Under the pieces are notes generated by a model. It made no database searches. It was given only the letters and a program-made list of their open reading frames with translations, and was not told the DNA's origin. Of a DNA stretch of 10,353 nucleotides, positions 3,171-10,353 are shown piece by piece. The position numbers and the translations under genes were made by a program. The DNA comes from a virus (Duplodnaviria > Heunggongvirae > Uroviricota > Caudoviricetes), in IMG/VR virus record IMGVR_UViG_2531839233_000017. One strand, written 5' to 3'. Numbering within the stretch: the stretch's first letter is position 1; each line of letters starts with the position of its first letter.

Positions 3171-4382
3171 ATGTGGCCTTTCAGAAGAAAAAAAGAGCAG
3201 CGCAGCATGACGCTTGATGAGTTTATGGCGCTGGCTGGCACATCGAACACGGGGGCGGGTGAGTACGTATCATCGGGGACAGCGGAATCACTGCCCGCCG
3301 TCATGAACGCCGTGACGGTCATCTCTGAGGCGGTGGCTACCATGCCGTGTTACCTGTACCTGGTACGCAATGAGAAGGGGAAGGAGGCCCGCGAGTGGCT
3401 TGATTCTCATCCGGTCGATCATATCCTCAACGAGCGCCCGAACGCGTGGCAGACGCCCTATCAGTTTAAGCGAATGATGGTCCGCCACTGCCTGTTAAAC
3501 GGTAATGCTTATGCGGTGATTCAGTGGGGGCGTGATGGTTTTCCGGTGGCTTTGCACCCTTACCCGCCGCAGTCGGTGAACGTGGAGCAGACAGGCGAAC
3601 ACAACTGGCGCTATTGCATCACTGACGCCTACACCGGAAACACCCACAACTATTTACCGTGGGAAGTACTTCACCTTCGTTACTCCACGGATGACGGCTT
3701 TATGGGGCGCTCACCTGTAACCATCTGCCGCGAATCGCTGGGGCTTGGGCTGGCCCAACAACGCCACGGCGCGAGCGTGATGCGTGATGGCATGATGGCG
3801 GCAGGGGTTATCACGTCAGGCGAATGGCTGGACGGCGTGAAGGGCAAACAGGCATTAGCCGCACTGGAACGCTACAAAGGGGCCAGAAACGCCGGAAAAA
3901 CGCCCATCCTTGAAGGGGGTATGAGCTATCAGCAGCTGGGCATGAGTAATCAGGATGCTGAATGGCTGGCCTCCCGTCGCTTTACCATTGAAGACATCGC
4001 CCGAATGTTCAACGTCTCGCCGATTTTTTTGCAGGAATACAGCAACAGCACCTACAGCAATTTCAGCGAGGCAAGCCGCGCATTTCTCACCATGACGATG
4101 CGCCCGTGGCTGGCGAACTTTGAGCAGCAGATAAAAAACGCCCTGCTGGTGGCCTCGCCTGTACCTGGTATCCGGTATCAGGTGGAGTTTGACAGCGCGG
4201 ACCTGTTACGGGCCACACCTGGCGAACGCTTTGCCACCTATGAGCGCGGCATCAAATCCGGCGTTATGTGCCCGAACGAAGCCCGCGAACGTGAAGGACT
4301 GTCACCGCGTGATGGTGGTGATGAGTTCAGCCAGGCATGGAAACAGGAAGTAAAAATCAGCGAGGGAGAAAAACCGGAATGA
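3171..4382 (+). CDS. Portal protein, HK97 family
   Basis: 403-aa ORF of typical HK97-family portal size, sitting in the head module. The start overlaps the protease stop (TGAtATG) and has a GGGGG Shine-Dalgarno. Confidence 0.88.
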   Translation: MWPFRRKKEQRSMTLDEFMALAGTSNTGAGEYVSSGTAESLPAVMNAVTVISEAVATMPCYLYLVRNEKGKEAREWLDSHPVDHILNERPNAWQTPYQFKRMMVRHCLLNGNAYAVIQWGRDGFPVALHPYPPQSVNVEQTGEHNWRYCITDAYTGNTHNYLPWEVLHLRYSTDDGFMGRSPVTICRESLGLGLAQQRHGASVMRDGMMAAGVITSGEWLDGVKGKQALAALERYKGARNAGKTPILEGGMSYQQLGMSNQDAEWLASRRFTIEDIARMFNVSPIFLQEYSNSTYSNFSEASRAFLTMTMRPWLANFEQQIKNALLVASPVPGIRYQVEFDSADLLRATPGERFATYERGIKSGVMCPNEAREREGLSPRDGGDEFSQAWKQEVKISEGEKPE

Positions 4383-4717
4383 ACATAGGGCGACTGCGTG
4401 ACAGGATAACGATTCAGACCCTGAAACAGACCAGAGCCATGACGGGCGAAATACTCGAAACGTGGGAGGACGGTCACACACTCTGGGCAAGCGTGAACAT
4501 GATCAGCAGCAAGGAGGCCATTTCATCGGGCGCAGAGCTGGCGATTGGTACCGTAAGGATCTGGATACGGTACCGGAAGGACATCAACGCCACCAGCCGG
4601 ATAAAGGTCAGTACGGGGCCGCTGGCGGGGCGTGTACTGAATATCATCGGGCAGCCGTTGCCGGATGTCGCCAGGACACGCCTTGAAATTCTTTGTCGTG
4701 AGGGCGCGGAAAAATGA
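4379..4717 (+). CDS. Head closure / head-tail adaptor protein (Phage_H_T_join-like)
   Basis: MNIGRLRDRITIQ … ETW … LWASV … IRYRKDI … LEILCRE matches the head-closure family pattern (GRLRxRITIQ, ETW, IRYR, LELLC). ATG 4379 overlaps the portal stop (ATGA) and has GAGGGAG 10 nt upstream. Confidence 0.8.
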   Translation: MNIGRLRDRITIQTLKQTRAMTGEILETWEDGHTLWASVNMISSKEAISSGAELAIGTVRIWIRYRKDINATSRIKVSTGPLAGRVLNIIGQPLPDVARTRLEILCREGAEK

Positions 4718-5010
4718 CAGAAGAACTTATCACCCTGGAAGAAGTGAAACTCCATTGCCGCATCGATGGCGACGAGGAAGACCAGTTAATCAGCGGATAC
4801 ATTGCCGCATCGCTTGAGGCGTGCCAGATACACATAGGCAGGCGCTTTGATGACGGGCTGGAGTTCACGCCAGCCATAAAGATTGGCTGCATGATGTTTA
4901 TCGCTCACCTGTATGAAAATCGCCAGATTGTCGCGGATAACGCAAAAACACGCGTACCCATGACGATTGGTGCACTCTGGACGGCTTACCGTGATGTGGG
5001 GGTGTACTGA
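4714..5010 (+). CDS. gp6-like head-tail connector protein (Phage_connect_1-like)
   Basis: LITLEEVKLHCRIDGDEEDQLISGYIAAS … HLYENR is the characteristic signature. ATGA overlap with the previous gene; GAGGG RBS. Confidence 0.8.
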   Translation: MTEELITLEEVKLHCRIDGDEEDQLISGYIAASLEACQIHIGRRFDDGLEFTPAIKIGCMMFIAHLYENRQIVADNAKTRVPMTIGALWTAYRDVGVY

Positions 5011-5450
5011 TGCCGTGGCAACCATTAAGACGATGCACAGAACCAGGCTGTAACAGGCGCGTGAAGTCCGGCAAGTGTGAGGAGCACAGGCGGGCGGCAT
5101 GGCGTGCAGAGGATGCCAGACGAGGACACCGCCGCGCGCGTGGGTACTCCAGACAGTGGGACAAATACCGCGCCATGTATCTGAGTAAAAACCCGTTATG
5201 CGTGCGATGCCTTGAGAAGGGGATATATACGCCCGCCGTGGTGGTGGATCACATTATCCCCATCGATGGCGGTGATGATGTTCTCTTCTGGCCCGAATGG
5301 AACCATCAACCATTGTGTCAGGCGTGCCATAACCAGAAAACGAAATGGCTTGATCCGGCAACAAAAAGCAAGCGTGCCGCAGGTGGATTTCGTGAAGAGG
5401 AAGAACGGGCCGCTAACCGCAATAACTGGATGTATGACGCTGATGAATGA
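5010..5450 (+). CDS. HNH endonuclease (terminase-associated)
   Basis: Cys/His motif CVRCLEKG … VDHIIPIDGGDD … NHQPLCQACHNQKT. Start overlaps the previous stop (TGATG). It sits directly upstream of terS/terL, as in HK97-type cos phages. Confidence 0.88.
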   Translation: MPWQPLRRCTEPGCNRRVKSGKCEEHRRAAWRAEDARRGHRRARGYSRQWDKYRAMYLSKNPLCVRCLEKGIYTPAVVVDHIIPIDGGDDVLFWPEWNHQPLCQACHNQKTKWLDPATKSKRAAGGFREEEERAANRNNWMYDADE

Positions 5451-5616
5451 GCGGGAACAAAACCGCCTTATCCGTGGACTTATAAGGCAGCGTGACGCAT
5501 GGAAGACACAGGAAACAGGGCATAAAGATAAAGCGTCAGGACGCGCAGAACGCATCACAGCGAAGCGATTAACCGACCGTGACCGCGAGGTTATGGAATG
5601 TTTCCGCAATCGCTGA
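5443..5616 (+). CDS. hypothetical small basic protein (about 57 aa); uncertain
   Basis: ATG at 5443 (or 5434) overlaps the HNH stop. Arg/Lys-rich (MNEREQNRLIRGLIRQRDAWKTQETGHKDKASGRAERITAKRLTDRDREVMECFRNR). Weak RBS, no recognisable motif. The long track ORF from 5212 is a shadow of the HNH gene. Confidence 0.3.
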   Translation: MNEREQNRLIRGLIRQRDAWKTQETGHKDKASGRAERITAKRLTDRDREVMECFRNR

Positions 5617-5628
5617 TGAGGCTGTATG

Positions 5629-5672
5629 ACGGGGTGGGGGGCGTTTTCAGGACAAACCCGACCCCGCCGGGC
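5629..5672. other. Candidate cos / packaging-initiation region (G-rich imperfect inverted repeat upstream of terS)
   Basis: GACGGGGTGGGGGGCG (5629-5643) and CCCGACCCCGCCGGGC (5657-5672) are partially complementary G/C blocks in the otherwise AT-rich intergenic region between the HNH-side genes and terS. Confidence 0.25.
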
Positions 5673-5739
5673 ACCGAACGCCTCCTCAAATTTTTATGCA
5701 CGGGAATTTTTTGAAAAATAATCTGGCGAAAAAATAAGC

Positions 5740-6096
5740 ATGGCAAGACCACCGAAAGCCCCCGCCTACCTGGATGATATCGCCGTGAAGCAGTGGCGGG
5801 AAAAATCGCGGCAGCTTGCGGAACGGGGTGACCTGACTCCCGCCGACTGGAGTAATCTGGAACTGTATTGCGTCAATTACTCGATATACCGGAAAGCCGT
5901 CGCAGACCTTGCGGCGCGCGGGTTCAGCATTGTTAACAGTCAGGGCGGAGAGAGCAGAAACCCCGCATTAAGCGCGAAATCCGACGCGGAAAGAGTGATG
6001 ATAAAAATGGCCTCCTTGCTCGGTTTTGACCCGATAAGCCGCCGTAAAAATCCACCGGAAACAGAAGAAGAGGACGAGCTTGACCGCCTGGAATAA
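5740..6096 (+). CDS. Terminase small subunit, P27 family
   Basis: N-terminus MARPPKAP; internal LELYCVNYSIYRKA … GESRNPAL … GFDPISRRK matches the P27-family TerS pattern. Directly precedes terL. Confidence 0.85.
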   Translation: MARPPKAPAYLDDIAVKQWREKSRQLAERGDLTPADWSNLELYCVNYSIYRKAVADLAARGFSIVNSQGGESRNPALSAKSDAERVMIKMASLLGFDPISRRKNPPETEEEDELDRLE

Positions 6097-7741
6097 GTAC
6101 GCAGAAGACGTAAAAACGGGCAAAATTCCGGCCTGTAAACGGTTAAAACAGGCTGTTAAACGGTACTTTTCGGACCTTAAAAGCCCCCTTTACACGTTCG
6201 ATCGTGAGGTTGTGGAGCGGTTTATTGCCTTTTCCAGGGTGTGCCCGCACGTAAAAGGACCGATGCGTGGCAGACCCATTGAGCTGGAGCCGTGGCAGCA
6301 GTTCGCCTTTGCGTGCATCCTCGGCTTTAAGGTTAAGGCCACCGGACGGCGCAAATACACGAGCGCCTTTATCGAAGTGCCGCGCAAAAATGCGAAATCC
6401 ACGACCGCCGCGATTCTGGCTAACTGGTTTTTGATTATGGAGAACGGTCAGCAGGATATCTACACCGCAGCGGTGAGCCGTGACCAGGCGCGGATCGTCT
6501 TTGATGATGCGCGTCAGATGTGCCTTTTATCCCGACCGTTACGCAGGCGGGTGAATATTCAGGCGCATAAGGTGATACACCCGAAAAGCAACAGCCTGTT
6601 AAAGCCGCTGGCAGCAAAAGCGGCAACCATTGAAGGTACAAACCCGAGTCTTGCCATTGTGGATGAATATCACCTGCACCCTGACAACGGGGTTTATTCC
6701 GCGCTTGAACTGGGAATGGGGGCGCGTCCGGAGGGGCTGTTATTTGCCATCACCACATCGGGGAGCAACGTTGTTTCAGCCTGTAAACAACACTACGACT
6801 ATTGCTGCCAGATACTGGATGGTGAAGAGGTGAACGAATCCATGTTCGTGCTGATTTACGAGCTGGATGATGAAAGCGAGGTTGACGATCCGGCGATGTG
6901 GATAAAGGCGAATCCCAATATCGATGTTTCCGTCGATCGTGAAAAACTGGCCTCAACCATCCAGAAAGCGCGGGGAATACCGTCGCAGTGGGTGGAGATG
7001 ATGACAAAGCGATTTAATATCTGGTGCCAGGGGGCTACCCCGTGGATGGGTAACGGCGCATGGGCTGAGTGTGCCGGAACGTTCACGGAGGAAGATTTAC
7101 ACGGCCAGGAGTGTTACGCGGGGCTGGATTTATCATCAACCAGCGATATTTCCAGCGTATGCTATGCCTTTCCGGTCGGTAAAACCATTATGCTGATTTC
7201 CCGTCATTATCTGCCGGAGTTCCAGCTACAGAACCCCGCCAATAAAAACCGCGCTGTCTATCGTCAGTGGGCTAAAGCGGGCTGGATACGCACAACGCCT
7301 GGCGACTGCATTGATTACGACCGGATCAGAGATGACATCATGCAGGACGCGGAGAAATTTCATATCAGGCTGGTGGGCTTTGATACGTGGAACGCCACGC
7401 ATCTCAGAACGCAATTACAGGGGGCAGGTTTTGAGGTGGAGCCGTTCCCGCAAACCTACCTCAGATTCAGTCCGGCGGCGAAATCGTTCGAAGTTTTTGT
7501 TAACCGCAGGGTGATTGTGCATCGTGGCGATCCGGTGTTGTCCTGGTCGATGAGTAACGTCGTGATGCAGAGTGACGCGAACGCCAATATCAAGCCGAAC
7601 AAGAAAAAATCACCGAACAAGATAGACCCGAGCGTGGCGGCACTGATGGCGTTTGGTACATTCCAGGCAGAGCATGAGGATTTTGCTTTTGATATAAGCG
7701 ACAGCCACCGCCAGAAACTGGAAGAATTCAGCGGGGTGTAA
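6080..7741 (+). CDS. Terminase large subunit (ATPase/nuclease)
   Basis: 553 aa. Walker A-like VPRKNAKST, Walker B-like LAIVDEYH, C-terminal nuclease-type region. Probable TTG start at 6080 (AGGA 5 nt upstream) overlaps the terS 3' end by 17 nt. Confidence 0.92.
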   Translation: MTAWNKYAEDVKTGKIPACKRLKQAVKRYFSDLKSPLYTFDREVVERFIAFSRVCPHVKGPMRGRPIELEPWQQFAFACILGFKVKATGRRKYTSAFIEVPRKNAKSTTAAILANWFLIMENGQQDIYTAAVSRDQARIVFDDARQMCLLSRPLRRRVNIQAHKVIHPKSNSLLKPLAAKAATIEGTNPSLAIVDEYHLHPDNGVYSALELGMGARPEGLLFAITTSGSNVVSACKQHYDYCCQILDGEEVNESMFVLIYELDDESEVDDPAMWIKANPNIDVSVDREKLASTIQKARGIPSQWVEMMTKRFNIWCQGATPWMGNGAWAECAGTFTEEDLHGQECYAGLDLSSTSDISSVCYAFPVGKTIMLISRHYLPEFQLQNPANKNRAVYRQWAKAGWIRTTPGDCIDYDRIRDDIMQDAEKFHIRLVGFDTWNATHLRTQLQGAGFEVEPFPQTYLRFSPAAKSFEVFVNRRVIVHRGDPVLSWSMSNVVMQSDANANIKPNKKKSPNKIDPSVAALMAFGTFQAEHEDFAFDISDSHRQKLEEFSGV

Positions 7742-7754
7742 TGAGGTCAGCAGC

Positions 7755-8036
7755 ATGACAGAAGCCGAACTACTGGGATTAATCCGCCGCGTATCTGGAA
7801 TCAGCCAGCAGGCTGACGAACAGACCACGCAGCCGGACAGCGTGACAGCCGAAAATTATGCGCGTGTTGTTGCTGAGGTGATGTGCCGTGATGGTATCCA
7901 GCTTAATGATGTTGATATGCGCAACATACGGATCCGCGTTCTTGAAATGCTGGCCTACAATCGCCGCGTTGAACTGCATCGGGAGAAAGAAAAAATAACG
8001 TACCACTGGAAGAAGCCGGAGCGGTTGCGGCGGTAA
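7755..8036 (+). CDS. hypothetical protein (93 aa), last gene of the island-side operon
   Basis: ATG 7755 with GAGG 8 nt upstream, 14 nt after the terL stop. No recognisable motif. The stop codon lies inside the first copy of the GGCGGTAACT repeat. Confidence 0.5.
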   Translation: MTEAELLGLIRRVSGISQQADEQTTQPDSVTAENYARVVAEVMCRDGIQLNDVDMRNIRIRVLEMLAYNRRVELHREKEKITYHWKKPERLRR

Positions 8037-8455
8037 CTGGTTGATATTTTCGAAATTCGCCAGCGGCGAACATCGGGGAAACCAGCCTAACCCGTTGATT
8101 CTTTCGGAAACAGCCATTGGCGGAATCCGGCGCGGTAACTTGCTGATATTCCCGATAACGCAAAATTGCGTGGCTGAATGAACATTATGATTACTTATGA
8201 TTACGCAGATGATTAAGGCCTAAACCGTTGATTCTTCCCAATTTCCACAGACTGTGGAAGTTGGCGCGGTAACTTACTGAGATTAAAGCAAAGCGCAAAA
8301 TTGCGCCGACTACATCCCTCACATGCGAAATTTTCGCAGTTTAATTACTCGCCAGTTTGATCGTTAACCCGCTGATATTTTCGGGAACCTCAATTTGAGG
8401 AAGTCGGCGCGGTAACTGGTTGATACTTTCGACCTCCTCAATTTGAGGAGGTCGG
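8027..8455. repeat. Array of four composite repeat units: 22-bp direct repeat GGCGCGGTAACT-NNN-TGATATT, each followed 4 to 9 bp later by a different palindrome, with a second direct repeat CCGTTGATTCTT about 37 bp upstream of three of them
   Basis: Core copies at 8029-8048, 8129-8150, 8263-8284 and 8405-8426. Palindromes at 8056-8070 (TTCGCC-AGC-GGCGAA), 8158-8171 (ACGCAA-AA-TTGCGT), 8293-8308 (GCGCAA-AA-TTGCGC) and 8430-8454 (CGACCTCCTCAA-T-TTGAGGAGGTCG). Second motif at 8092-8103, 8225-8236 and variant 8369-8383. Confidence 0.8.
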
Positions 8456-8743
8456 GGCACAGAAAAACAACGAATATGTTGTTTTTGGGAATGGTCATAA
8501 TGACCACGCAGACCATCAAGGCAACCACAACGAACATCGTTACGGTTGGAGCTTTTACCCCACTGGGGGAAAGGTATTACGATAATCATAACACCTACCG
8601 AACAGGTAAAACCCACCAGCCTGATTAACAGTTAACCGGAAAAAAAATCCGGTAGCCCCGTTATGGGGATCCCCATATCGACATTAACGCCCCTCATGAA
8701 TTGGTGCGCTTCCCCCTGGAAAGATTACCCGCCTGTATATTTC

Positions 8744-8786: not shown

Positions 8787-8810
8787 GGTGTAGTTAATGG
8801 TGTAGTCAAT
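8787..8810 (+). repeat. Tandem 12-bp direct repeat (GGTGTAGTTAAT / GGTGTAGTCAAT)
   Basis: Two adjacent 12-mers differing at one position, about 85 bp from the phoQ stop. Confidence 0.5.
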
Positions 8811-8892
8811 TTGCTGTTTTTAGCACTTTTTGCAGTGTGGGTTGTTTAATTAAATCAATGGGTTGCCTTGCTGTGGTGATAAAAGGACATAT

Positions 8893-10353
8893 TTATTCAT
8901 CTTTCGGCGTAGAATGCTGGCGACCAAAAATCACCTCCATCCGCGCACCGCCAAGCATGCTCTCTCCGGCGACGATTTTACCCTCATATTGCTTGGTGAT
9001 TTCGCGGGCTACCGCCAGCCCCACACCTTGCCCAGGGCGTAAAGTATCAACCCGTTGACCACGGTCGAAAATGACCTCTCGCTTGCTTAATGGAATACCG
9101 GGGCCATCATCCTCGACCACAATATAGAGATGCTCGTCGGTTTGCCTTGCAGAAATTTCGACAAACTCGAGGCAATATTTACAGGCATTATCCAGTACAT
9201 TGCCCATCACCTCGACAAAATCGTTCTGCTCACCGACAAAGCTGATCTCTGGCGAAATATCGAGAGAGATATTGACCCCTTTGCGTTGATACACTTTGTT
9301 CAGCGCCGAGGTGAGATTGTCCAGCAGTGGGGCGACCGGATGCAGCTCGCGGCTGAGCAATGTCCCGCCGTGCATACTGGCACGATGCAGGTAGTAGCCA
9401 ATTTGCTGTGAAATGCGGCTGATTTGCTCCAGCATTACCGGTTCAGCATCACTGACGCTCATCTTTTCACTACGTAGAGAACGCAGCGTACTTTGCAGCA
9501 CCGCCAGTGGCGTTTTCAGACTATGGGTCAGGTCGGTGAGCGTTGTACGATATTTGTCGTAACGTTCGCGTTCACTTTTTAACAATCGGTTCAGGTTTCG
9601 TACCAGACTGGTCAGTTCTCGCGTTGTGGCTGGATTGAGCAATTCGCGGTTATGTTCTTCCAGTTCGCGGACTTCTTTTGCCAGGGCTTCGATGGGGCGT
9701 AAACTCCACCAGGCGGCGACCCACAGCAGCGGGATCACTAACAGCAGATTGGCTGAGAGCACATAGATAAACCAGCTCCAGACCATATAGGAACTTTTTA
9801 GCTCCACCGGAATGGTATCCACCACCACAATGGTTAACTTTGGCATCCGCGATGTTGCCGGGTAGACGTTTACCGCCACCGAGTGGGTCATCTCCGCGTC
9901 GTCATCATCTTCCCGCACTTCCTGCAACTGTTGCTGTATCGAATGATCTCCACTCAGCAAGAGGCTGGTATCGTTAACATCCGCTTCAATTTCATGAAAA
10001 CCATTCGATTTCAGCCAGTCAGGCTGGATCATCTTCATCAGCCAGGGCACGTCACGTTGCGCCCATAAAAGCTGCCCGTTCTCATCATAAATTAGCGTCA
10101 TGGTGGGGCTTTGCTTGTCGATATTTTCGGGTAACTCGACATGCAACTTATTGTTTTCCCACTTCGCAAGGGTATAGAACAGATTGCTCTCGCCACGTAA
10201 CAGCCGAAACGTAGTTTTATCGAAACTGACGCTATAACCGATCAGCGCGACCATTCCGTAGGCAAGCGAAAGCACCAGTACTACCGCTGCCGTTGCCAAC
10301 AGAAAACGTACCCGCAGCGAGAGCGGGAAAAAAAGACGCAGTAATTTTTTCAT
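8893..10353 (-). CDS. phoQ: Sensor histidine kinase PhoQ of the PhoPQ two-component system
   Basis: 486-aa ORF, full length. [33 protein letters not shown]…, periplasmic acidic patch [12 protein letters not shown]-box [16 protein letters not shown]-binding G-boxes DDGPGIP and GQGVGLAVA. Matches E. coli PhoQ from memory. The start codon is at the very end of the window. Confidence 0.97.

Follow-up and report, generated by a model that had tools for sequence, protein, structure and literature searches.

Sites for IHF, a DNA-bending host protein, are known to be paired with palindromes on the E. coli chromosome, where RIB/BIME-1 elements at transcription-unit 3′ ends combine an IHF site with palindromes, and where mRNA 3′-end protection, termination or pausing, and topological insulation have been suggested as their roles (PMC3333891). 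In the satellites known as PICIs several cis-acting sites have been described: mapping placed the origin of Gram-negative PICIs directly 3′ of pri-rep (PMC6092414), EcCICFT073 has its two cosN sites and its functional cosB upstream of orf93, the last gene (PMC6739421, PMC9026076), and HE-PICIs carry a doubled motif about 81 bp from the attP centre on one flank and 132 bp from it on the other (PMC10111431). The AlpA protein is tightly conserved among PICIs (PMC10111431). We found no account of the array described here in the searchable literature, PICI papers included.

The window, a stretch of 10,353 nucleotides, covers the rightmost 10 kb of Sakai Sp7, which is almost certainly the capsid-forming satellite (cf-PICI) EcCIEDL933.

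Architecture and setting of the array

The original prediction described four direct repeats, each followed by a palindrome, with a second repeat ahead of three of them and another hairpin between the two motifs. All of these elements were recovered. The 22-bp (A) repeats lie at 8027-8048 (GCGGCGGTAACTGGTTGATATT), 8129-8150, 8263-8284 (with TGAGATT) and 8405-8426 (with TGATACT), at the predicted spacing of 102, 134 and 142 bp, and a palindrome starts 3-8 bp after each of them (4/4). The second (B) repeat, found at 8092-8103, at 8225-8236 and, in degenerate form, at 8369-8380, is placed 36-38 bp before the next A repeat, and the further palindrome between B and A was found in 3/3 cases. The grouping into four units plus a separate repeat did not hold, however: A and B repeats share an identical geometry, and thus form one family of seven units, not four plus three, each a box with its palindrome, spanning 8027-8455 (Table 1). 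The box reads YTAAC-N3-YTGAT-W and occupies positions 3-14 of the unit, with the palindrome centre ~29-30 nt downstream (7/7 units), and the tandem unit length is ~48-55 bp. Two further modules lie among the units, an A+T-rich segment, for whose repeat other PICIs carry the unduplicated form (AATAATCATTATGATTA), and an extra palindrome.

Table 1. Features at the right end of Sp7, in window coordinates
Feature	Position	Strand	Description
orf93 (ECs_1599)	7755-8036	+	93 aa; final gene of the rightward operon
Unit 1 (A type)	8027-8070	-	box 8034-8046 TATCAACCAGTTA, IHF consensus perfect; palindrome TTCGCC-AGC-GGCGAA 8056-8070
Unit 2 (B type)	8085-8121	-	box 8088-8100 AATCAACGGGTTA, perfect; palindrome GCCA-T-TGGC 8113-8121
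Unit 3 (A type)	8129-8170	-	box 8136-8148 TATCAGCAAGTTA, 1 mismatch; palindrome CGCAA-AA-TTGCG 8159-8170
A+T-rich module, gap between units 3 and 4	8175-8215		tandem duplication TTATGATTAC x2 at 8185-8204
Unit 4 (B type)	8218-8264	-	box 8221-8233 AATCAACGGTTTA, perfect; palindrome 8238-8264, 13-bp arms, one T.G mismatch
Unit 5 (A type)	8263-8306	-	box 8270-8282 TCTCAGTAAGTTA, 2 mismatches; palindrome GCGCAA-AA-TTGCGC 8293-8306
Extra palindrome, gap between units 5 and 6	8324-8338		TGCGAAA-T-TTTCGCA; separate module, also in other PICIs
Unit 6 (B type)	8362-8400	-	box 8365-8377 TATCAGCGGGTTA, 1 mismatch; palindrome CCTCAA-T-TTGAGG 8388-8400
Unit 7 (A type)	8405-8454	-	box 8413-8425 TATCAACCAGTTA, perfect; palindrome 8430-8454, perfect, 12-bp arms
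Conserved distal spacer	8456-8700		small palindromes GGTCAT-A-ATGACC, AACGA-ACA-TCGTT, CCCCA-C-TGGGG, CCGG-A8-TCCGG, GGGGATCCCC
Doubled motif GGTGTAGTTAAT GGTGTAGTCAAT	8787-8810	+	probable integrase arm-type site
Core-proximal IHF-consensus box AATCAATGGGTTG	8853-8865	+	perfect match; ~20 bp upstream of att core
att core identity block GGACATATTT	8885-8894		common to attL and attR; overlaps phoQ stop codon

The array lies in the untranslated tail of the single rightward operon of the PICI, on the sense strand and 3′ of the last stop codon, and is followed in order by the arm sites, one more IHF box and the att core. It had been placed at the island end; it is indeed on the int-distal side, but is not terminal, lying 430-860 bp inward of the att core, and the comparison proposed with the opposite island end yielded no array box beside int. 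The last gene, orf93, whose TAA stop codon falls within the box of unit 1, matched nothing in Pfam or PDB; its sole profile match was PHROG 1561, a family of unknown function. The orf93 family is narrow (38 representatives), with an almost invariant WKKPERLRR at the C-terminus, and its AlphaFold model is helical (pLDDT 71.5) and gave no match in a fold search. Bearing on orf93 as a candidate array-binding protein, the PICI L005 has the array and lacks orf93.

Between the array and the att core, the distal spacer recurs in nearly all PICI right ends, with or without an array. The doubled motif has a second, co-oriented copy adjoining int at the left end (L001 ~2660-2690), a layout that matches the one described for HE-PICIs (PMC10111431). 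Judging by this arrangement, the doubled GGTGTAGTYAAT motif is probably a better candidate for the arm sites than the array is. The core-proximal box is oriented opposite to the array boxes, and, reverse-complemented, it matches the B-unit box of other PICIs (CTAACCCATTGATT) at 12/13 positions. Att sites of tyrosine recombinases usually carry an IHF site near the core, the position that this box occupies here.

IHF consensus, palindrome covariation and distribution

Read on the minus strand, the unit box is the IHF consensus, WATCAANNNNTTR, perfect in four boxes of the array and with one mismatch in two others, all on that strand. The perfect 13-mer occurs only five times in the whole 15.5-kb island, four times in the array (minus strand) and once beside the att core. 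Among 37 distinct homologous PICI tails it was found 53 times on the minus strand vs. never on the plus strand, against a shuffle mean of 0.56, although these unit counts are not independent events, as units share descent; the array is thus beyond chance, as originally claimed. A divergent element (L286, with a non-E. coli flank and an orf93 homologue only 44% identical) had 5/5 boxes perfect, with variation at the N positions of the consensus (TAAC to TAAT or TAAG). Based on these matches, the array boxes are most likely candidate IHF binding sites. A-type boxes often depart from consensus positions (CTGAG, CTGAA, TTTAT), and the part of them that is best kept, GCGGTAACT, lies outside the IHF consensus; the N positions of the consensus are also conserved inside each subfamily, via common descent. 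A short A-rich run (GAAAA, GAAAG, GGGAA) directly abuts the consensus, and the palindrome centre, ~17 bp upstream of it, is A/T-rich (CAAWWTTG). The A-tract of lambda H′ is spaced differently from these A/T-rich parts of the units, and we know of no IHF property that would account for a variable palindrome at a set distance from the site.

The array palindromes (9-27 bp) have many different sequences, yet they covary. In the B-unit palindrome, double-sided changes were observed in 4/5 pairs, 92.9% of cells were paired, and the covariation score was matched by 0/500 shuffles; the 85 cells of this alignment held zero one-sided (wobble) changes. Altogether 31 distinct palindrome arms were found, all at the same offset. 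Downstream of the array in several other PICIs, a hairpin that leads into a T run (ATGACGT-GGCCA-ACGTCAT-TTTTTT) was read by eye.

Related arrays, with anywhere from 0 to 7 units, stand at the same end of all kinds of E. coli PICI examined, including both prototypes, EcCICFT073 and EcCIEDL933, and always come between the last gene and the arm motif, whatever the packaging, Rep and Int types. Array matches occurred in just 1336 of 5426 E. coli genomes, at a median of 1 place per genome, so that the array is not a general chromosomal repeat, and each context inspected was a PICI right end or remnant, not the unrelated loci that a generic dispersed repeat would occupy. A search of 50,697 phage records gave no match to the array, and a degenerate two-box pattern scan of genome contigs returned only unrelated tandem repeats and chance matches. 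By these sequence comparisons, the array is a feature of the PICI family, not limited to the Sp7 island, and the original view of it as an organised, non-coding and probably protein-bound array, traveling with the int-distal end, its palindromes conserved in position and variable in sequence, was borne out. It is also accessory, the unit number varying from 0 to 7 between related islands; some PICIs with orf93 carry zero units, showing that whatever function the array has is dispensable.

Possible roles of the array

We tentatively favor the reading, possible rather than probable, that IHF sites and palindromes make up, in the array, a mosaic peculiar to these satellites, which serves as an architectural or insulating operon tail next to attR. 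IHF occupying the co-oriented boxes would impose a series of sharp DNA bends. Because the palindromes are symmetric at the DNA level, hairpins or cruciforms could form, and the palindromes could fold in transcripts from either direction. Boxes and palindromes together might then build a compact nucleoprotein buffer at the end of a heavily transcribed operon, which would shield attR/attP and the neighboring host gene from transcription and supercoiling. Such a buffer would be similar to the one suggested for RIB/BIME-1 elements.

An extended recombination arm, in which IHF and/or the excisionase-activator AlpA would sit on the boxes and a long distal attP/attR arm would tune how efficiently, or in which direction, Int carries out excision and integration, seems unlikely to us. 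The array does lie on the int-distal side of att, the side that in lambda holds Xis, Fis and most of the IHF sites, the same box is found beside the att core, and the tight conservation of AlpA would suit a motif common to islands with differing integrases. Yet the array, with 330 bp of conserved spacer and the arm motif in between, is much farther from the core than the usual ±200 bp, the unit number falls to zero in PICIs that look mobile, no unit-like box was found near the alpA-controlled region, and with AlpA as ligand the perfect IHF consensus would be a coincidence. That the boxes are integrase arm sites proper, as had been suggested, is contradicted by their sameness in islands with attB at phoQ, yejO, mdtJ and clpS and with differing arm motifs (GGTGTAGTYAAT in Sp7, TGTATTGC in L188, TGTGTATAG in L286); more generally, the retention of the array across differing attB, arm motif, iteron and packaging argues against arm sites, Rep iterons and TerS (cosB) sites alike. 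We consider it rather unlikely that the array acts as transcribed hairpins, a long mRNA 3′ tail whose stem-loops would give 3′-end protection, pausing or termination, or small-RNA processing. Its place immediately 3′ of the final stop codon, on the sense strand of an operon read in one direction, would fit such a tail, as would palindrome covariation, the hairpin plus T run downstream in several other PICIs, the somewhat better folding of the plus strand (-146 kcal/mol, z -3.5, vs. -134.7 kcal/mol, z -2.6, for the minus strand) and the internal mismatches of the unit palindromes, which on the plus strand numbered 4 G.T vs. 0 A.C. With every hairpin of the region counted, however, the mismatches were 13 G.T vs. 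14 A.C, and the B-hairpin alignment lacks wobble pairs. No promoter-like site was found on either strand of Sp7 and no clear intrinsic terminator, the unit hairpins being without a following U-tract on both strands (by eye); an Rfam search yielded no match at gathering thresholds and a single, meaningless microRNA match at permissive ones, and RNA structure would leave the conserved asymmetric box unexplained.

Improbable, in our estimate, is a neutral minisatellite or relic, arising as the orf93 3′ end and the neighboring IHF box were repeatedly duplicated and recombined, and persisting though functionless in itself, with palindrome symmetry maintained by template-switch correction and not by selection. 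Such an origin would account for the highly variable copy number and mosaic order, the many combinations of boxes with palindromes, the left flank of A units, which copies the last codons of orf93, and the absence of the array from some islands. It sits poorly with the retention of 0.3-1.4 kb of such non-coding DNA by small, size-constrained PICIs, with the single offset shared by the 31 palindrome arms, and with L286, where box, strand and box-to-palindrome distance are kept beside a protein so diverged. A packaging site, with the units as cosB-like TerS-binding repeats of the capsid-forming island, is scarcely credible. The array is just downstream of terS-terL, and CCTCCTCAA is shared by the hnh-terS gap and unit 7, but related arrays are found in PICIs of unrelated packaging specificity (packaged via Rpp, via their own TerS, or via HNH-TerS-TerL), and HNH-type phages have cos between hnh and terS, a gap which here we take to be ~5616-5740. 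The cosN sites of EcCICFT073 (L002 7921 and 8660) are, like its functional cosB, upstream of orf93 (PMC6739421, PMC9026076). Very improbable too is a replication element, i.e., an additional origin or a P4 crr-like cis region to which the island's primase-helicase would bind, with 8175-8215 as the melting site. The units do flank that A+T-rich segment, TAACCCG is common to the B boxes and the Sp7 iteron, and some PICIs have an iteron-type origin at the right end near the array. Nonetheless the units are co-oriented on both sides of the segment, and the box is the same whether the repeats 3′ of the primase gene are TAACCCGCA, as in Sp7, or CTCTACC/GGTAGA, as in EcCICFT073 and L005, which also contradicts the earlier proposal of Rep iterons. 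Local alignment of the origin centre to A-type units was not significant (equalled by 6/200 and 31/200 shuffles), and the mapped origin of Gram-negative PICIs is 3′ of pri-rep (PMC6092414).

Several further identities were examined by eye and rejected. For a CsrB-like GGA sponge, ~10 GGA were counted in 430 nt (~7 expected), and they lie outside the loops. For decoys of lambda nut boxA/boxB, the loops are of 3-4 nt and not a GNRA-like pentaloop, and boxA is absent. CRISPR-repeat mimicry is limited to GCCAGCGG, common to the type I-E repeat and unit 1 only. Ends of the IS200/IS605 type were suggested by TTAC, TCAA and TTGAT, but the hairpins vary too much and no transposase gene is present. A sigma-54 promoter match was confined to unit 3, with spacing off by one, and partial matches to Fis, PurR, FNR and DnaA boxes were confined to single units.

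Significance and comparison with known systems

PICIs are compact and size-constrained, and to the att, ori and cos sites mapped in the prototypes EcCICFT073 and EcCIEDL933 the array adds a further conserved non-coding feature. If IHF binds it, a part played by this host factor in the excision, transcription or topology of satellites could be put to the test. The box-plus-palindrome signature offers a marker of PICI right ends for genome annotation, and since the length of the array region varies, it is a candidate site for cargo insertion in engineered PICIs.

As in the array, the short boxes of integron attC sites are conserved and the palindrome varies in sequence but not in position, which suggests that structure, not sequence, is recognized. 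The box-plus-palindrome unit could be imagined as a structure-recognized cis element dedicated to the satellite life cycle, for example an IHF-organized hairpin or cruciform array that the excised island would need for switching between recombination, replication and packaging, or one for lagging-strand priming on a concatemer; we consider this doubtful, but if true it would make the unit a new class of satellite cis element and not a passive tail. An attC identity itself was dropped on inspection by eye: each attC carries a pair of complementary boxes (RYYYAAC ... GTTRRRY), one at either end of a single long imperfect hairpin, whereas the PICI unit has one asymmetric box next to its short perfect palindrome, and an integrase of the integron type is absent. 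With the iterons of PICIs and SaPIs and with P4 ori/crr the array has in common the short direct repeats of a satellite on either side of an A+T-rich segment; it differs in that its box is constant across Rep types and iterons and that all boxes are co-oriented.

The 13-bp IHF consensus is common to the array and to the sites of lambda-type att (H1, H2, H′) and cosB (I1), and one copy adjoins the att core as in lambdoid attP. In both, a host factor would serve as an architectural element of a mobile element, presumptively so for the array. In lambda the three IHF sites fall within ~240 bp and are interspersed among those for Int and Xis, whereas the PICI array has up to seven boxes, 430-860 bp from the core, paired with palindromes and varying in number.

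From RIB/RIP (BIME-1) elements the PICI units differ in lacking a systematic GTAG/CTAC tag (CTAC occurs once, at ~8309, and not regularly beside palindromes) and in having no sequence similarity to chromosomal REP/BIME, as the occurrence of matches in only 1336/5426 genomes, at PICI ends in every context inspected, indicates; this also speaks against a REP/BIME-1 identity as a species-wide dispersed repeat. A RIB is a single REP-L-iREP with the IHF site in the L linker, while PICI units are tandem and co-oriented; REP palindromes are far less diverse than those of the units; and no RAYT transposase is associated with the array. The likeness is nonetheless close in layout: in the array too the 3′ end of a transcription unit bears an IHF consensus between palindromes, and both are extragenic, with the consensus flanked by short palindromes, stems that vary but stay complementary, a mosaic order and a varying copy number (PMC3333891). 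If IHF binds the array, it would provide a second mobile-element example of the poorly understood RIB-type pairing of IHF site and palindrome.

The island and its right end

The window is identical (100%) to sequence in both E. coli O157:H7 Sakai and EDL933. Its Sakai counterpart is the right 10 kb of a 15.46-kb element annotated "prophage Sp7; untypable" in the roxA/phoQ interval. The genes, all in one direction (ssb, perC/pchE, major capsid, protease, portal, two connector genes, HNH, terS, terL and a 93-aa ORF, orf93), agree with the published account of the capsid-forming satellite EcCIEDL933 (10.1101/2022.09.08.507074); O-island 51/CP-933C of EDL933 has been described as a cryptic prophage of 14.93 kb (PMC3378721). 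The att identity block overlaps the phoQ stop codon, so the island is inserted exactly at the phoQ 3' end and the phoPQ transcript enters its right end on the minus strand. Two features of the Sakai record differ from our reading: alpA, between int and ECs_1576, was left unannotated, and the record's 'holin protein' is, by its Pfam match, an HNH endonuclease (PF01844, E 1e-8).

Features of the right end and of related phage satellite islands (PICIs); window positions unless a locus is named
Feature	Position	Remark
HNH gene (ECs_1595)	5010-5450	
Small ORF after hnh to terS	5616-5740	124-bp gap; G-rich stretch GACGGGGTGGGGGGCG
terL 3' end	7717-7745	similar to A-unit left flanks
orf93	7755-8036	last gene; array between its stop codon and attR
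Last orf93 codons	8003-8036	W-KKPERLRR-stop
A repeats	8027, 8129, 8263, 8405	spacing 102, 134, 142 bp
Boxes of the seven units	8034, 8088, 8136, 8221, 8270, 8365, 8413	A and B types alternate
A+T-rich module	8175-8215	10-bp tandem duplication (TTATGATTAC x2)
Doubled motif GGTGTAGTTAAT-GGTGTAGTCAAT in attR	8787-8810	~85 bp upstream of att core
IHF consensus, plus strand	8853-8865	~20 bp upstream of att core
att identity block GGACATATTT	8885-8894 (8885-8895)	
Co-oriented doubled motif, Sakai island (L001)	~2660-2690	~135-160 bp beyond core, next to int
alpA, L001	4301-4489	outside window
Spacer module copies, clpS-site PICI (L005)	3886-3965, 4422-4503	...CACCTGAATCATCATTACCGTGATCAAGGGTATGTAAAG...CCGGAAAAAAAGCCAGGTA
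B unit fused to att core and phoQ end, EcCICFT073-type PICI (L163)	~4432-4470	CTTTCGG/ACATATTTATTCATC
GTGAC module, array-poor PICIs (L131, L155)	~40-90 nt past orf93 stop	four direct repeats, spacings 10-13 bp (CCGTGACGGAGAGTGACAACCAGTGACACGCCGTGACAAAA)
Right-end origins (L244; L246; L247)	~6480-6660; ~6330-6500; ~5220-5420	

Units, boxes and palindromes

The original prediction of four 22-bp direct repeats (A units), each followed by a palindrome, and of a second repeat (B units) at a fixed offset was borne out: all four A repeats are present, the second repeat occurs three times, each 36-38 bp 5' of an A repeat, and a palindrome was found behind every repeat. The array escapes Tandem Repeats Finder because its copies have diverged too far and their spacing is too irregular. 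By repeat search and unit alignments, A and B units have in common both YTAAC-N3-YTGAT-W-N-TT and the position of the palindrome; they are thus one family, which gives the window seven units. The A-unit left flanks (GGAAGTCGGCGCGGTAAC) all imitate the last codons of orf93, which are nearly invariant even at 44% identity; this resemblance, and that to the terL 3' end, suggests that units arose via duplications including a gene end.

The box reads WATCAANNNNTTR on the minus strand, which is the consensus of E. coli integration host factor (IHF), a DNA-bending protein. In the window array, four boxes fit this consensus perfectly and two depart from it at a single position each, always on the minus strand; the whole island has only one further perfect match, on the plus strand near the att core, and the B-unit box CTAACCCATTGATT found in other islands agrees with its reverse complement at 12 of 13 positions. 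The 37 distinct homologous tails compared, 23.6 kb in all, contain 53 perfect matches, every one of them on the minus strand; shuffled tails averaged 0.56, with at most 3. The observed count measures conservation and not independent events, since the tails are related by descent. The most telling case is locus L286, whose orf93 homologue is only 44% identical, whose doubled arm motif differs (TGTGTATAG) and whose chromosomal flank had no E. coli match: it has five units, every one with a perfect box, and the C of TAAC is not retained (TAAT, TAAG), so exactly YAA-N4-TTGAT-W survives across that evolutionary distance. Counting against the IHF reading, A-type boxes are frequently degenerate at consensus positions (CTGAG, CTGAA, TTTAT) and their best-conserved part is GCGGTAACT.

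In 20 of the 26 distinct units the palindrome centre is 29-30 nt distant from the first base of TAAC, random positions in the same regions giving a flat distribution. A wider set of 108 distinct unit instances, gathered across related islands, includes 80 with a perfect palindrome (at least 4 bp per arm, centre at 27-32 nt), in which 31 different arms are represented. These vary between units with complementarity retained, in the window (TTCGCC/GGCGAA, GCCA/TGGC, CGCAA/TTGCG, CCACAG/CTGTGG, CCTCAA/TTGAGG) and in relatives (CCCCC/GGGGG, CCTGC/GCAGG, GTGCA/TGCAC, GCTCA/TGAGC). When 17 B units were aligned without gaps, 92.9% of cells were paired, with double-sided changes at four of the five pairs; the covariation score was reached by 0 of 500 shuffles, and a one-column shift of the partner abolished the signal. 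The symmetry is thus real and maintained, complementarity having been kept despite sequence change and covariation exceeding that of shuffles.

Distribution and mosaic tails

Parts of the array were matched in 1336 of 5426 complete E. coli genomes, at one to six places per genome, in only four plasmid records, all from E. coli, and in none of 50,697 phage records. Every context inspected was a PICI right end, intact or as a remnant, and the array travels with that end of the island; among these contexts are EcCICFT073 (Rpp type, same attB as Sp7), TerS-type PICIs at yejO and phoQ, a capsid-forming PICI at mdtJ, a PICI at clpS without orf93, and a decayed remnant. Among 42 distinct IMG/VR tails 3' of orf93, units number 0 to 7 and module order is mosaic; orf93 and the arm motif are 300-800 bp apart in nearly all, and the region is therefore not a cargo-gene hotspot.

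Other rearrangements were seen in these tails. In L005 the whole array sits between two conserved spacer module copies and looks, from sequence, as if inserted or duplicated as one block. In L163 both the spacer and the arm sites are deleted, which has probably left the island immobile. The GTGAC repeats of L131 and L155, followed by a hairpin and T-run resembling an intrinsic terminator, may be another protein-binding module of the same variable region. The A+T-rich module occurs unduplicated in other PICIs, where AATAATCATTATGATTA forms a 7-1-7 palindrome that we take to resemble a Fur box.

Competing readings and the nearest analogue

Our best-supported reading, held tentatively, is that the array is a series of tandem IHF sites, each with a palindrome, in the untranslated operon tail adjoining attR. 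IHF would bind the boxes, the palindromes would form hairpins or cruciforms, and the whole would act as a compact, bent nucleoprotein structure that buffers the recombination site and the host gene from a strongly transcribed operon of 13 kb. An extended recombination arm is the foremost alternative, itself unlikely. The proposal of integrase arm sites within the array did not hold: the separate doubled motif has the arm-site layout, reported to be the same for TGTATTGC of helper-embedded PICIs (PMC10111431), and is probably the arm-type site of this integrase clade, and the array is present despite other doubled motifs (TGTATTGC in locus L188, TGTGTATAG in L286). Ranking next, and doubtful, are RNA hairpins of the 3' tail. 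RNA folding was slightly better for the plus strand than for the minus strand, and internal mismatches within unit palindromes were 4 G.T vs 0 A.C; across all hairpins of the array region they were 13 G.T vs 14 A.C, no cell of the B-unit alignment had a one-sided (G-U type) change, and the array region gave no Rfam match, no predicted sigma-70-like promoter on either strand and no U-tract after unit hairpins. A neutral minisatellite seems slightly less probable again.

We consider a replication element very improbable. The Sp7 origin lies 3' of the primase gene with iterons TAACCCGCA/TGCGGGTTA, and the suggestion of Rep iterons fails in that the boxes are unchanged in EcCICFT073 and L005 although the iterons there are CTCTACC/GGTAGA; the origin of Gram-negative PICIs has been mapped adjacent to pri-rep (PMC6092414). 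A packaging site is the least credible reading of all: the array is common to three packaging types, and the cosN sites of EcCICFT073, whose cos is organised as cos-rpp (PMC6739421, PMC9026076), lie upstream of orf93, which speaks against TerS recognition repeats.

Separately, L244, L246 and L247 have an iteron-type origin close to attR, which follows either the array or, directly, terL. Three copies of TGCGGGTTA and three of TAACCCGC flank its A+T-rich centre, which bears an IHF-consensus box; its iterons are those of the Sp7 origin, and it may be a second origin or a relocated one. For HNH-type islands we presume, from HK97-type phages, that cos lies in the hnh-terS gap; no published cos mapping for the HNH-TerS-TerL module was found in the PICI literature searched.

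We found no description of the array in that literature. It was also rejected as a REP/BIME family member, being without the GTAG/CTAC tag, not dispersed in the chromosome and without sequence similarity to chromosomal BIMEs. We conclude that it is a new, satellite-specific form of IHF-site-plus-palindrome mosaic element, and its presence in both experimental prototypes makes it directly testable. Its nearest known counterpart is RIB/RIP (BIME-1) of E. coli, an IHF site between REP palindromes at transcription-unit 3' ends, for which roles in stabilising mRNA, in termination and as a topological insulator have been proposed (PMC3333891), and we propose the same kind of role for the array.
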